Source of the DNA: Candidatus Aenigmatarchaeota archaeon
GTDB taxonomy: Archaea; Aenigmatarchaeota; Aenigmatarchaeia; QMZP01; JAFGSV01
Assembly: GCA_043803615.1 (NCBI GenBank)
Contig: JAZDJY010000120.1
Span: 1 to 25,527 of the forward strand
Direction: 5' to 3'
Length of the DNA stretch: 25,527 nucleotides
The notes under the pieces are model-generated. The model made no database searches and was not told the origin of the DNA. It saw only the letters and a list, made by a program, of their open reading frames with translations. The translations under genes and the position numbers were made by a program. Position 1 is the stretch's first letter; every line of letters begins with the position of its first letter. Shown one piece after another: positions 3,129 through 17,278 of the stretch.

Positions 3129-6100
3129 ATGGCAGCAGCCGGGTATGCTTATGACGAGAACGAGCAGAGGCTTAGGATAAACTATCTCGGTTCCATCTTC
3201 GGCGCAAGCATCGAGGACTACGCGGAGTGCATGGCCGACGTCCTGGACAAGATCCTCGAAGTCAAGAACGTGAAGAGCGTCGTCCTCATAAAGGACAGGG
3301 AGTACGAGTACGGCCCCGAGCAGTCGGCCATGCTAGTCGAGATAGCAAAGGTCATAGAAGACGTCGTCCGCGAGAGGCTCATGTCGAGAGTGAAGGTCTC
3401 AGACGACCTGCAGAAGAAGCTTTTTCCCGAGATGAACGCGCGGATGCAGGACATCGTCGTAAACCTCCTGCGCAGGGACCCCATAGGCGCCTACGCCGAG
3501 GTGGTGCGCGAGATTAGGCGCATCAGGATAAGGATGGCGGAGACCAAGTACAGGAGCGCCTACGACATCTACGCCGACTACCTCAAGAACGTACTCGGCG
3601 TCATGAGGACGAGGCTTGAAGCGACACAGCTCATAAAGACGGCAAAGCCGCATGTCGCCGGCTACCACAGCGGGGACAGGTCGCTATATAGGGAGATATT
3701 CATTCCCAGCATCCGGCCCAATTTCATGCTCACGAGGTACATGATAACGCCCCCCGAGAACGGCAAGTCCGTGAAGAGGTATAACGTCGGGGACGTCGAG
3801 GTCGAGATATTCAGGCTCCCAGAGAGCGCCGAGTACTTCTACCACGTCCTCCCCCCCGAATTCGTGCTCACCGAGGAGAAGTACGCAGTCCTGGACGCGG
3901 CGAGGAGGTACATGGCGACGCACCAGCCCAAGACCGCGGAGTTCGTGAGGACGGGCAAGATCAGGGAAGTCTTCTATAACATCGGGCGGGACATGATAAG
4001 GGAGGTCGCCGACCAGCACGGCGTCTTCATGAGCGCAAAGGAACTGGACCAGCTGGCGACCATACTCACGAGATATACTGCAGGCCTCGGCGTCCTGGAA
4101 CTGCTCCTGGCAGACGAGAACGTGCAGGACGTCTACATAAACTCCCCTGTCGAGTCGCAGCCCATACTCATAAACCACGCCGAGTTCGAGGAGTGCAGGA
4201 CCAACCTCATCCCGACGCAGGATGACGCGGAGTCCTGGGCGACGAGGCTTAGGATGGAATCGGGAAGGCCGCTTGACGAGGCAAACCCGGTCCTGGACAC
4301 GGACATAGGCGTCCCGGGCGGGAAGGCCAGGTTCTGCGTCATAACGAGGACGCTTTCGCCGCGCGGCCTGGGTTTTGCCATAAGGAGGCACAGGGACAAG
4401 CCGTGGACGCTTCCCCTTTTCATCAAGGCCAAGACCCTTTCCCCGCTTGCGGCAGGCGTCCTGTCATTCCTGATAGACGGCACGGCGAGCATGCTCGTCG
4501 CCGGAGGCAGAGGCGCGGGAAAGACCTCAGTCCTTGCGGCCCTGATGCTGGAGATACTGCCAAAGACGAGAATAGTATCCATCGAAGACAGCGTCACCGG
4601 GGACGCTTCCATCATATACGAGAACGGGGGCGAAATGAAGATTGGCACGGTGGGGGAGCTTGTAGACACGATGGTTGAAAAGTATGACAGTGAAAACATC
4701 CTTGGAAGGGACATACTCGCCTCGAACCCAAAGAATGTGAAGGTTTTTGCAATGGACAGCAAGGGGAAGATACGCCTCGCCCCAGTCAGCAGGTTCATAA
4801 GGCACAAGGTGAACAAGGAAATCTTTGAAATAAGGACGTCTACCGGCAGGAAGATATCCGTCACGGAGGACCACTCCCTCTTCTCGATGGGAGAAGACGG
4901 CTCTGTTTCTTCCGTGAAGTCGAAGAATCTCCGGGAAGGGGACTTCATCGTGACTCCGCGGGTGCTGAAGTTCGAAAACAAGCATGCAAAGTGCATCGAT
5001 TTGTCAAAGCACGCTGAAAAATTGGGTGGTTTTTACCTCACCGGCGCGGCAGTGAGGGAATTTGCCGCCGCCAACAGGAACGCGATAAAGGCGGCCGGGA
5101 AGAAGCTTTGCTACAGCAAGCCGGGAATAAACTACTGGTTCAGGACCGGGACATTCCCTGCAAGGGTATTGTCTTCCATGAAGGAAAGGATAAAGGCAGG
5201 GGACGGCATTTCAATAAAGGCGAACAGGTATTCCCAGCCGATTCCTGCAATCATACACCTTGACGAGGATTTCCTGAAATTTGCCGGCATGTGGCTTGCA
5301 GATGGATGCTGCTACAAGAATTCCGTGATAATATCCGTGATGGAAAAGGAGGAAAGGGACGTTGTAAGAAGTGTCGCAGAAAAGATGGGACTCCGGGTCA
5401 GGATGCATTCCGACGAATGTTCCCTGATGCTGAATTCCGCGGTTCTGGTAAGGGTGATGGGCGACGTCCTTGGCCTCCGGGGAAATGCCTACACGAAAAG
5501 GATGCCTCCCTGGGCCTTCAGGCTTTCGGGAAAGCAGACCGGATGGCTCCTCAATGGCTTTTTCAGCGGCGACGGGTGCGCCTCGGACAAGGAGGTCGTC
5601 GCGTCCATATCCTCGGAAAAGCTCTTGGTGGATATACAGACCATGCTTCTTTCCTTCGGTGTTATATTGAGGATAGGAAAATACAGGAAAAGCGATAAGA
5701 CGTGGCCATCGCACATAAGCTCGCTGAAATCACTGAAGCTTTTCAGGGAAAACGTAGGCTTCGTCCAGCAAAGGAAAATGAAGAGGCTGGATGCACTATG
5801 TTCTAAAGTTTCAACCCACGACAGCTCTGACGTCATACCCCTTTCGGTCGGCCTGAAGAAAAAGATAGCCGGGGTTTGCCCATTTTTCAACAAGAACGAC
5901 TATATCGTGAGGGGAAACGAAATAGGAAGGGAACATATGAAAAAACTTCTTAAGAAGATTGACCCGGAAGAAAAAGAACTGGTAGGGAAGCTTTCCGTTC
6001 TGGCTGAATCCGACATCCTGTGGGACAGGATAACGGAAATAAAATCAGTGACGAAGCCGCAGTACGTCTATGACTTCTCCGTCCCCGGCTTTGAGAACTT

Positions 6101-16411: not shown

Positions 16412-17278
16412 ATGAAAGCACACGGGATGAAGGGAATGGTGAACGTCGTGTACGCGATAGCGCTGATAGTGATGCTTCTCATGGCGCTCTCATTCCTCGG
16501 GTCGTCCATGTTCAGGAAGCAGGATACAGTGCAGGTCATGTTCGACAGCGACGTCTACACGCTCCAGGGCGCGCTTGACGCAGCAAAGCTATACCTGGAC
16601 ACGGCGGCAAGGTACTCCGTCCAGCAGGCCATGTACGAGAACGGCCTGCGCGGCGGCTTCTCCCCGCTTTCGGAATGCTCTGTCTACGAATACACAGGGA
16701 AGAAATACTGCCTGTGGGGAGGAAGTGGCGGACTTTCGCCTTCTGCGGCGGATGCGGCAAAAGAGCTGCAGAAGACCGCAAACCAGTCGTTTGTGGCGTA
16801 CACCAAGAAAAGCGTCATAGTGGCCCTGTATCCTGTCGCTATTCCCGTGTACGGCTACCCCTCGGTAAAAGACGTGAACGGCTATGAGTGCAGCGTGCTC
16901 ATTAAATCTCCGGCAAGGCTTTCCGCCGGCACGGTGTCCGAAGTCTCAGGCGACGAGACGACCTTAAGCGTCCCGTCGGAGATAAACGTCACCGTCAGCA
17001 TGCCATACTTTCGGGCCTTTGAGATTGCGCAAGGCATCCACGCATCGCTTTCCAGTGCCGCCGGCTGCAGCCCTGCCGATATCGAGAAGACTGAAACGAC
17101 GGAATGCTGCAGCGTCTCGGTGAAGGTAGTCGACGAGGCAAGCTGCACGGTCATGGTCTCGGTGAAGACGAAGAAGGAGTTCCTCGTCTGGGACGGCGCC
17201 GCGGCGGCAATGGAGCCAGTGGATTTCACATTCTTCTGGAAGGCCGCTCCTCCGGCTGCAGGCGGGACTGGGGGGTAG
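16412..17278 (+). CDS. minor pilin-like protein
   Basis: MKAHGMKG|MVNVVYAIALIVMLLMALSFLG. Start could be GTG 16400, ATG 16412 or ATG 16427. Confidence 0.75.
   Translation: MKAHGMKGMVNVVYAIALIVMLLMALSFLGSSMFRKQDTVQVMFDSDVYTLQGALDAAKLYLDTAARYSVQQAMYENGLRGGFSPLSECSVYEYTGKKYCLWGGSGGLSPSAADAAKELQKTANQSFVAYTKKSVIVALYPVAIPVYGYPSVKDVNGYECSVLIKSPARLSAGTVSEVSGDETTLSVPSEINVTVSMPYFRAFEIAQGIHASLSSAAGCSPADIEKTETTECCSVSVKVVDEASCTVMVSVKTKKEFLVWDGAAAAMEPVDFTFFWKAAPPAAGGTGG

Follow-up and report, generated by a model that had tools for sequence, protein, structure and literature searches.

Pilin-like carriers of putative murein hydrolases in a type IV filament-type locus of a Candidatus Aenigmatarchaeota archaeon

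The stretch of DNA analysed here, below called the window, is a 25.5-kb contig (C120) of a 688-kb metagenome-assembled genome of a Candidatus Aenigmatarchaeota archaeon, 65% complete. The forward strand at positions 3129–17278 encodes a secretion ATPase and a platform-like protein, followed by ten consecutive proteins that start with a hydrophobic helix; two of these carry domains related to peptidoglycan hydrolases of the GH73 and M23 families (Table 1). The first-pass annotation of this DNA had described the same set as an archaeal type IV pilus locus, and the ATPase, the platform-like gene and the ten pilin-like genes indeed lie on that strand at the positions it gave. The operon is compact: neighbouring genes are separated by –7 to 97 bp, and in places a stop codon overlaps the next start codon. 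The genes called by the Joint Genome Institute (JGI) on a contig of 80% identity agree with this map for the nine genes that follow p943, including a 48-aa gene in the place of p55 and a 37-aa gene in the place of p37; p943 itself appears there only as a cut product of 715 aa. Synteny of the entire locus extends to six congeneric genomes. Below, G numbers denote the genomes of relatives, L numbers the loci compared and f numbers the families of the order, the window belonging to f1.

Table 1. Features of the locus and of its surroundings in the window
Feature	Positions	Strand	Remarks
Secretion ATPase, GspE/FlaI/TadA (CpaF) type, 1261 aa	3129–6914	+	Pfam T2SSE, Intein_splicing and LAGLIDADG_3
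Intein, 513 aa, with LAGLIDADG homing endonuclease	4590–6128	+	aa 488–1000 of the ATPase, from the alignment with the L011 ortholog
Platform, polytopic, 704 aa, probable diverged FlaJ/TadC/PilC type	6961–9075	+	two T2SSF-like halves
p943, Cys-rich surface protein	9139–11970	+	22 Cys; RRG and helix at the N-terminus
p55, mini-protein	12077–12235	+	MEFTFRT and helix; in all same-genus loci
p107	12303–12626	+	leader MKG/LSMTLEIVIIAIVLLV...; Cys-rich head
GH73-type N-acetylglucosaminidase (putative)	12696–13343	+	MKG and helix leader
p37, headless mini-pilin	13392–13505	+	MAKG/QVPEMG... and helix only
p195	13543–14130	+	MARKG and helix; Cys-rich head
p144, small N-terminal-helix protein	14138–14572	+	
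p274, carrier, cargo-free here	14566–15390	+	MLKKG/QLDIDIE and helix
M23 metallopeptidase (putative) on a carrier of ~150 aa	15387–16403	+	leader MRSKA/S; M23 domain at aa ~165–338
p292, carrier, cargo-free here	16427–17278	+	MKG/MVNVVY and helix
Three small membrane-protein genes	54–497, 502–858, 956–1507	+	upstream of the ATPase gene
Two divergently transcribed genes, 330 aa and 142 aa	1633–3060	–	adjoin the ATPase gene
AMP-salvage cluster: form III RuBisCO, AMP phosphorylase, ribose-1,5-bisphosphate isomerase	21745–25406		

The GH73-type protein consists of a helix (aa 8–28), a disordered linker (aa 30–47) and an enzyme domain (aa 50–215) in the AlphaFold model (pLDDT 76), and has seven conserved cysteines. 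Its PF01832 score is 22 bits, below the gathering score of 30.2 bits, and six of 13 orthologs have a precomputed match to this family. A profile made from 16 sequences matches Staphylococcus aureus AtlE (4pi7, E-value 1.4e-5) and pneumococcal LytB, and the invariant Glu103 (QKETSLG) is aligned with Glu138, the catalytic residue of AtlE that is mutated in 4pi8. With the domain model as a query, the best 16 Foldseek matches are all GH73 enzymes, led by LytB, AtlE and Acp. The GH73-like hydrolase seen in the first-pass annotation is upheld by the profile, the catalytic glutamate and the fold, PF01832 itself staying under its cut-off. Eight of the nine other congeneric genomes have the gene, one of them as a fragment of only 42 residues; at this slot, GH73 is essentially limited to this one genus.

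The M23 assignment is more direct: PF01551 scores 77 bits (E-value 1e-21, gathering score 28.7), and the best match among PDB sequences is the bacteriolytic enzyme zoocin A (E-value 2.8e-13). In the AlphaFold model, a long N-terminal helix and three short ones precede a four-stranded sheet, whose end is IPLPGG, and the M23 domain comes last. A Foldseek search with the whole model, dominated by the enzyme domain, retrieves the M23 enzymes ShyA, LytM and lysostaphin; the carrier, a long helix with the four-stranded sheet, is pilin-like in topology, without a match in the databases. The peptidase on a pilin-like protein noted earlier is thus confirmed in family and fold, with a variant metal site: the HxxxD motif (HSGID) and the central His (YSH) are kept, and the HxH motif reads H-L-D. 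The aspartate is present in all seven other same-clade sequences aligned, and the motif is H-L-H in G002 and in other families. Since the Asp is kept across the clade, H-L-D looks more like a metal-site variant under selection than like decay.

Two further proteins, p274 and p292, are free of cargo in the window and armed elsewhere. The orthologs of p274 in G002 and G003 end in an SLT domain (PF01464, 22.5 and 20.1 bits; L012:4558-5988 and L020:3991-5442). The orthologs of p292 carry PKD, YkuD and Amidase_3 domains in G001 (E-value 7e-44), an SGNH/GDSL domain in G002, SLT in G038 (E-value 2e-27) and PG_binding_1 in G033 (E-value 8e-8). The p292 gene is kept beside the M23 gene and the Alba gene across families, and its product scores 0.96 in the ESM Atlas against large DPANN clusters, with TadE as a weak structural lead. 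Two other Atlas leads, DUF7287 and DUF7284, were tested on the genome and produced no match.

The slot of the M23 carrier is occupied by a Peptidase_M15_4 protein in G003, G006 and G008 (E-values 1e-15 to 3e-18), and the GH73 slot of G002 holds only a 117-aa remnant, this genome having SLT instead. SLT occurs in 35 of the 71 genomes of the order, in 15 of them less than 2 kb from an M23 gene, and the SLT proteins of the order start with KG leaders like that of p274; by our reading, SLT-carrying proteins of other families have the LSSVDxG motif of p144 in their N-terminal parts as well. The cargo changes slot by slot, and therefore every examined locus retains one enzyme for the glycan strand (SLT or GH73) together with one for the peptide (M23 or M15).

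The module that carries M23 was used in an exhaustive HMMER search, which yielded 26 clusters. Among the 26 aligned members, 17 have no cargo, are 143–188 aa long and end shortly after the IPLPGG strand; the armed ones carry M23 (five), M15_4 (three), CHAP, NlpC/P60 or M99. Judged from these alignments, the family is a modular-pilin architecture, a small stand-alone module that has been armed repeatedly. All cargo modules found are known from peptidoglycan enzymes, SGNH, PKD and NlpC/P60 also from other contexts. The first-pass annotation had called for a survey of relatives for similar fusions, and to its two enzymes the survey added M15, SLT, Amidase_3, YkuD, PG_binding_1, CHAP and NlpC/P60; its central observation, enzymes built onto carriers with pilin-like leaders inside one operon with an ATPase and a platform, holds as well.

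The position of the M23 domain differs between the families. In L016 to L019 (families f2 and f6) it is inserted inside the carrier, before the last IPLPGG strand, and in the genus of the window it is appended after this strand. Thus the same carrier has been armed in two different ways.

The genes of p144, p274, the M23 carrier and p292 are translationally coupled. The four proteins were folded together without their membrane helices (p144 aa 32–144, p274 aa 42–274, p292 aa 30–283, M23 carrier aa 38–150), and a complex was predicted with ipSAE values of 0.93, 0.93 and 0.94 and pLDDT of about 86, scores that express the model's own confidence from shallow alignments and are no measurement. Three controls with unrelated proteins swapped in all yielded 0.00. 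The score mark is reached by 58 of 80 solved complexes and by two of 110 mismatched pairs, counts that are only rough here, as the alignments were our own shallow ones. The suggestion that the minor pilins form a complex is thus strengthened, and the natural reading of the model would be a heteromeric cap similar to the minor-pilin complexes of the type II secretion system (T2SS), the type IV pilus (T4P) and the Tad system.

The ATPase is interrupted by an intein, and an intein-free ortholog was used for the comparisons. The latter matches Archaeoglobus fulgidus GspE (2oap, E-value 3e-26), CpaF and FlaI; GGRGAGKTS (Walker A) and IED (Asp box) can be read directly from the sequence. The matches of the ortholog to the NCBIfam models of FlaI, TadA and BasE are far below the cut-offs (139 bits against 550 for FlaI, 50.6 bits against 1000 for BasE, NF053672). 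On these matches, the ATPase is a member of the archaeal secretion-ATPase clade and no equivalog of any named system. An archaellum was considered and rejected, as the FlaI model is so far under its equivalog cut-off and no match to archaellin (PF01917) was found in the 65%-complete genome. The intein splits the Asp box (IED/TLEL), starts with Ser and ends with His-Asn, followed by Thr. It is absent from all six congeneric orthologs of the ATPase, and therefore appears to be a recent invasion.

The platform copy of the window has no Pfam match itself, scoring 14.8 bits against PF00482. Its homologs at 50% identity or more number over 250 across the Aenigmarchaeota; several have PF00482, and one is named TadB. 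The hhalign comparison with the canonical T2SSF proteins of the same genome covers aa 418–567 with an E-value of 1.2e-4 (55% probability), and the match of the first half, aa 90–198, is weak (E-value 0.024). Because orthologs at 50% identity or more carry PF00482, the 704-aa protein is a probable diverged platform protein. It is found in 70 of the 71 genomes of the order, and hence the machine seems to be a core feature.

Other parts of type IV filament (T4F) systems are scattered over the genome. An A24 prepilin peptidase is encoded on contig C138 (PF01478, 34.4 bits, above the cut-off), and in one relative the gene of its homolog lies directly beside that of the platform ortholog, in divergent orientation (L070, G040:C4, 7257-10271). 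Three further canonical T2SSE ATPases, with T2SSF platform genes, are present on contigs C133, C83, C57, C129 and C74; therefore this reduced genome has at least four T4F-type machines. On C133, two canonical archaeal pilins (KG/LSPLIA and KG/ISPLVA) are situated beside one of these ATPases. Separately, contig C6, outside the window, contains at about 2600–11300 a second cluster of proteins with KG or RG leaders followed by a helix. This cluster (leaders MRKGSIEV..., MRKSVKGQAPVMEY... and MKGQTSMAV...) resembles the carriers in the window, and a 693-aa protein in it starts with MHIMRRGQAEF... and has a faint Pilin_N match.

The first-pass annotation ascribed pilin-like leaders to the ten proteins. 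In eight of them [KR][GA] occurs within the first nine residues and is followed by a helix, and in eight families this combination is kept in orthologs with only 25–45% identity. A loose version of the motif was found in 34 of 878 crude genes of the genome (3.9%); in the operon it was scored directly for five genes, and two more, dropped by the crude caller, fit by eye. Given this background, the richness of the operon in the motif is not due to chance.

The small subunits are conserved to a varying extent. The N-terminus of p107, MKG/LSMTLEIVIIAIV..., is nearly invariant in seven orthologs, one of them from another family (L016), and p107 is likely the best candidate for the major pilin. In L011 to L015 and L020, p55 corresponds to conserved open reading frames (ORFs) whose length is about 50 aa (MEFTLRT...). 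Those of p37 are ORFs of 36–39 aa with a KG leader in L014, L015 and L020, and L013 has a tblastn match in the same place. Orthologs of p195 are present in all same-genus loci; the protein matches no family in Pfam or NCBIfam.

The p943 orthologs are 836–1042 aa long, with KG or SG leaders and 14–29 cysteines, and four of five have the C-terminal hydrophobic segment. The protein has no family match and no Atlas match above chance. As for the membrane-insertion-like segments ascribed to it, an N-terminal helix and a C-terminal Gly/Ala-rich hydrophobic segment are present, and nothing beyond these was found. A toxin or translocator role was considered for p943 and dropped, since its only support was the same C-terminal segment.

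A number of observations weigh against a filament built of these subunits and bearing active enzymes. The strict FlaFind-type class III pattern, read from the sequence, is passed only by p107; in most other leaders 5–10 polar residues separate [KR][GA] from the helix, and p144 and p55 do not have the motif. None of the ten carriers matches, at a meaningful score, a pilin, class III or N-methylation family in Pfam (E-values up to 10) or NCBIfam, PF07790, PF04021 and PF07963 included; PF07790 matches only the canonical pilins on another contig. The profiles of p292 and p274 found nothing relevant among PDB sequences, and no solved pilin. The first-pass annotation took class III signal peptides as a route into the pilus; this is too general, as sugar-binding proteins of Sulfolobus carry such peptides too. 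Further, the GH73 protein has no pilin head in the AlphaFold model, the C-terminal segment of p943 does not suit extrusion in a filament, and Asp replaces His as the last zinc ligand of the M23 enzyme; the complex scores have been qualified above. Any of the three other T2SSE ATPases could serve the carriers, and the hydrolase block is separated from the ATPase and the platform in families f2, f4 and f6. Finally, there is no RNA run among the listed public runs that contain a part of the locus.

Some of these points would suit a different arrangement, in which the ten proteins are membrane-anchored ectoproteins with uncleaved signal anchors, forming a surface complex independent of any filament, and the gene order is incidental. 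Such an arrangement is consistent with nine of the ten proteins failing the strict pattern and none matching a pilin family, with the separation of the hydrolase block from the machine in other families, and with the build of two members, the GH73 protein being only a helix, a linker and an enzyme, and p943 having a second hydrophobic segment at the C-terminus. However, a plain anchor needs no [KR][GA], which is nevertheless kept at 25–45% identity in eight families. Moreover, the A24 peptidase is present, in G040 beside the platform gene, the operon is tightly packed with the ATPase and the platform throughout the genus, and p37 and p55, little more than leader plus helix, are understandable as subunits of a filament and not as enzymes. 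We regard plain membrane anchoring as unlikely, and consider it moderately probable that the locus encodes a T4F machine of the FlaI/TadA–FlaJ/TadC kind with its own pilin-like subunits, whose carriers form a complex. The hydrolase block directly follows the platform gene only in family f1, and no other T4P ATPase was found beside the block in the other families within the 20-kb loci. Thus the window is the clearest physical link between the machine and the carriers, a link of gene order.

The surroundings of the locus bear on the origin of the contig. Downstream of it are the genes of Alba, enolase and iPGM, followed by a convergent cluster. Alba and the archaeal AMP pathway (Table 1) are encoded on the same contig, which is therefore archaeal and of the DPANN type. 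All named homologs of the window proteins come from organisms listed as Candidatus Aenigmarchaeota or Aenigmatarchaeota archaeon. The gene order recurs in at least ten independent genomes, one of them a single 742-kb contig. The first-pass annotation had left room for a bacterial or chimeric contig; the hydrolases would then belong to a bacterium. It is true that the M23 and GH73 domains are ultimately of the bacterial type and that, beyond the Aenigmarchaeota, the next-best matches are bacterial M23 proteins. However, Alba, form III RuBisCO, AMP phosphorylase and the archaeal-type ATPase share the contig, and the synteny extends over about ten related genomes, so that the probability of a bacterial or chimeric origin is practically nil. 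The only public run that contains a part of the contig is a sediment metagenome (DNA). Directly after the AMP phosphorylase gene, within the AMP-salvage cluster, there is a 131-aa ORF (21347–21742, minus strand), in which only the tail of PF10143, the archaeal phosphoglycerate mutase family, was matched (E-value 9e-5).

As to the target of the enzymes, no penicillin-binding transpeptidase was found in 21 relatives, and Mur_ligase_M genes number at most one per genome. As the archaeon does not synthesise murein, the substrate should be bacterial peptidoglycan outside the cell. Pseudomurein has neither MurNAc nor D-amino acids, the features on which the domains Amidase_3, M15 of the D-Ala-D-Ala type, YkuD and PG_binding_1 act. 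With such murein-specific cargo at the same slots in the relatives, the sequences suggest that peptidoglycan is very probably the target, as first proposed.

An alternative is that the enzymes remodel a wall for the passage of the filament, either that of the archaeon itself or the pseudomurein of an archaeal host, in the way that FlgJ and VirB1 act in bacteria. Bacterial flagellar, type IV secretion and T4P loci often include a GH73, SLT or M23 enzyme, and Mpg of Neisseria is a local wall-opening enzyme of T4P (PMC3735123). However, the 21 relatives have no transpeptidase and at most one Mur-ligase-like gene each, and their Amidase_3, M15, YkuD and PG_binding_1 domains do not fit pseudomurein. 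Hence own-wall remodelling was rejected, and remodelling of either wall seems very improbable.

We infer the remaining steps, that is, the processing of the leaders, the assembly by this particular machine, the position and activity of the enzymes and the identity of the partner. The subunits would enter the membrane by their N-terminal helices, and the leaders would probably be trimmed by the A24 prepilin peptidase of the genome. The ATPase and the platform would probably assemble the subunits into a filament or a short pseudopilus, with p107 likely as the main subunit, and p144, p274, the M23 carrier and p292 would form a complex like those that tip or prime other filaments. Several of the subunits would be carriers, in which a small module stays constant and the enzymes grafted onto it are interchangeable. 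In the window, the cargo would be a GH73 glucosaminidase that cuts the glycan strand and an M23 endopeptidase that cuts the peptide stem or bridge. The enzymes might open the bacterial wall at the contact point, for attachment, access to the cytoplasm or predation, or else digest the wall for nutrients.

Display at the filament tip and attack on living bacteria are plausible. The full proposal is an order-wide contact-dependent wall-breaching pilus, extruded by a Tad/FlaI-like T4F machine, whose four-subunit minor-pilin cap with interchangeable murein hydrolases opens living bacteria; the cap would combine a glycan cutter and a peptide cutter, joined in relatives by amidase, L,D-peptidase and esterase modules. 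We put it forward tentatively, as possible rather than probable. The same apparatus could have a scavenging role, obtaining amino sugars and amino acids from free peptidoglycan debris (necromass), comparable to substrate capture by bindosomes. There is precedent for T4F machines that use class III cargo to capture nutrients (PMC3047682, PMC13705601). The genome is small, its metabolism is poor and a nucleotide-salvage pathway is encoded nearby; the sample is sediment, and nothing in the locus resembles a pore-former or an injector (Pfam, NCBIfam, Atlas). On the other hand, a set of endopeptidases, an amidase, a lytic transglycosylase and CHAP is closer to lytic weapons and phage lysins than to enzymes of recycling, and among solved proteins the M23 domain is most closely related to a bacteriocin, zoocin A. 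We consider scavenging somewhat unlikely.

Five genes upstream of the ATPase (positions 54–3060) may also belong to the system. The three small membrane-protein genes are all syntenic with the ATPase in the same-genus loci L011, L013 and L020 (tblastn); two of them, not 502–858, are kept in another family (G016, L069). None has an informative Pfam match. The two divergently transcribed genes are syntenic in L011, L013, L020 and L069, and their products have only weak Pfam matches, below the cut-offs. Thus the place of the five genes beside the ATPase is kept in the genus, and that of four of the five in family f4; they may be unrecognised or accessory parts of the machine.

Two long ORFs lie antisense to the operon genes p107, p37 and p195, one at 12275–12619 (114 aa) and the other at 13311–13928 (205 aa), both on the minus strand. 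They outcompete the real genes in naive longest-ORF calling. We take them as spurious, because both the JGI calls and conservation favour the genes on the plus strand.

In bacteria, modular type IV pilins are represented by PilB of Streptococcus sanguinis, with a vWA module, and PilC, with a lectin module, and 264 such architectures are recorded in InterPro (PMC8179133). The carriers described here share with them a small N-terminal module with another module grafted on, the occurrence of the former alone and the variation of the cargo at a slot. They differ in that the host is an archaeon, the carriers have no known pilin signature, including those of the IPR012902 type, and several are armed in one operon. 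The cargo also differs, being adhesion modules and S74 and M26 peptidases in that paper (PMC8179133) and murein hydrolases here.

The closest archaeal parallel is the bindosome of Sulfolobus, formed by BasEF and sugar-binding proteins with class III signal peptides (PMC3047682). A census of 2026 describes class III binding proteins across archaea, finds that the T4F genes of DPANN archaea are usually scattered, and makes no mention of peptidoglycan or hydrolases (PMC13705601). In the bindosome, an archaeal T4F ATPase and platform serve functional non-filament proteins with pilin-type N-termini, a job beyond adhesion or motility, and those of the present locus would do likewise. Unlike in the bindosome, the window has lytic cargo, an ATPase other than BasE, and cargo genes inside the operon of the machine.

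Minor pilin and pseudopilin complexes are represented by GspH-I-J-K of the T2SS, FimU-PilVWX of type IVa pili and TadE/TadF of the Tad system. As in the predicted assembly of four carriers, these are small co-transcribed helix subunits that form a heteromeric cap priming or tipping the filament; however, there is no detectable sequence relation to them, and the subunits in our case carry enzymes. GspK is discussed in PMC8179133.

Archaeal peptidoglycan hydrolases as such had been reported, as the first-pass annotation noted. Woldo and Danwoldo of Halogranum salarium, both zoocin A homologs, kill bacteria; the same paper lists M23 proteins in DPANN (Nanoarchaeia), with pilins and class III signals unmentioned (PMC12352652). 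These are likewise zoocin A-type M23 proteins of archaea without murein, read as anti-bacterial weapons. However, the Halogranum enzymes are secreted and have peptidoglycan-binding domains, whereas the enzyme of the window sits on a pilin-like carrier in a T4F operon and is accompanied by a glycan cutter. In the Woesearchaeota, large stand-alone GH23 lytic transglycosylases underlie the hypothesis of "vampiristic" DPANN archaea, pili being unmentioned (PMC9723730). As in the present locus, murein-degrading genes of DPANN archaea are there taken as a sign of bacterial prey or hosts, but in the Aenigmarchaeota an order has a conserved multi-enzyme block on carriers.

Saccharibacteria, members of the candidate phyla radiation, bind their hosts by T4P in episymbiosis, the abstracts of the two papers making no mention of wall-cutting enzymes (PMC9894109, PMC11623550). 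The likeness is that of an ultrasmall symbiont with a reduced genome whose T4P find and hold a bacterial host, and the difference is that the pili are bacterial. A genomic study of the Aenigmarchaeota mentions FlaI/FlaJ-like genes and not peptidoglycan (PMC8407114). Our literature search found no paper in which pilin-like carriers of an archaeal T4F operon bear murein hydrolases. The genus-wide synteny, the slot-wise exchange of murein cargo, the census of the carrier family, the predicted four-protein complex and the near-absence of murein-synthesis genes from the relatives are new here.

To our knowledge, every cultivated DPANN archaeon lives on another archaeon, and the hosts of most DPANN lineages, the Aenigmarchaeota included, are not known. 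Murein enzymes repeatedly swapped onto the same carriers, in archaea with no murein of their own, are strong genomic evidence of physical dealings with bacteria. The parts are named, namely, two enzyme domains, a predicted complex of four proteins, one peptidase and one pair of ATPase and platform, and the locus suggests a source of unusual disulfide-rich peptidoglycan hydrolases. Two ideas, the grafting of modules onto pilins and archaeal T4F with class III-signal cargo, would be extended to lytic enzymes. If the wall-breaching pilus is real, it would be the first defined molecular apparatus for episymbiosis or predation of an archaeon on bacteria, and the hosts of a major DPANN lineage would be bacteria rather than archaea.

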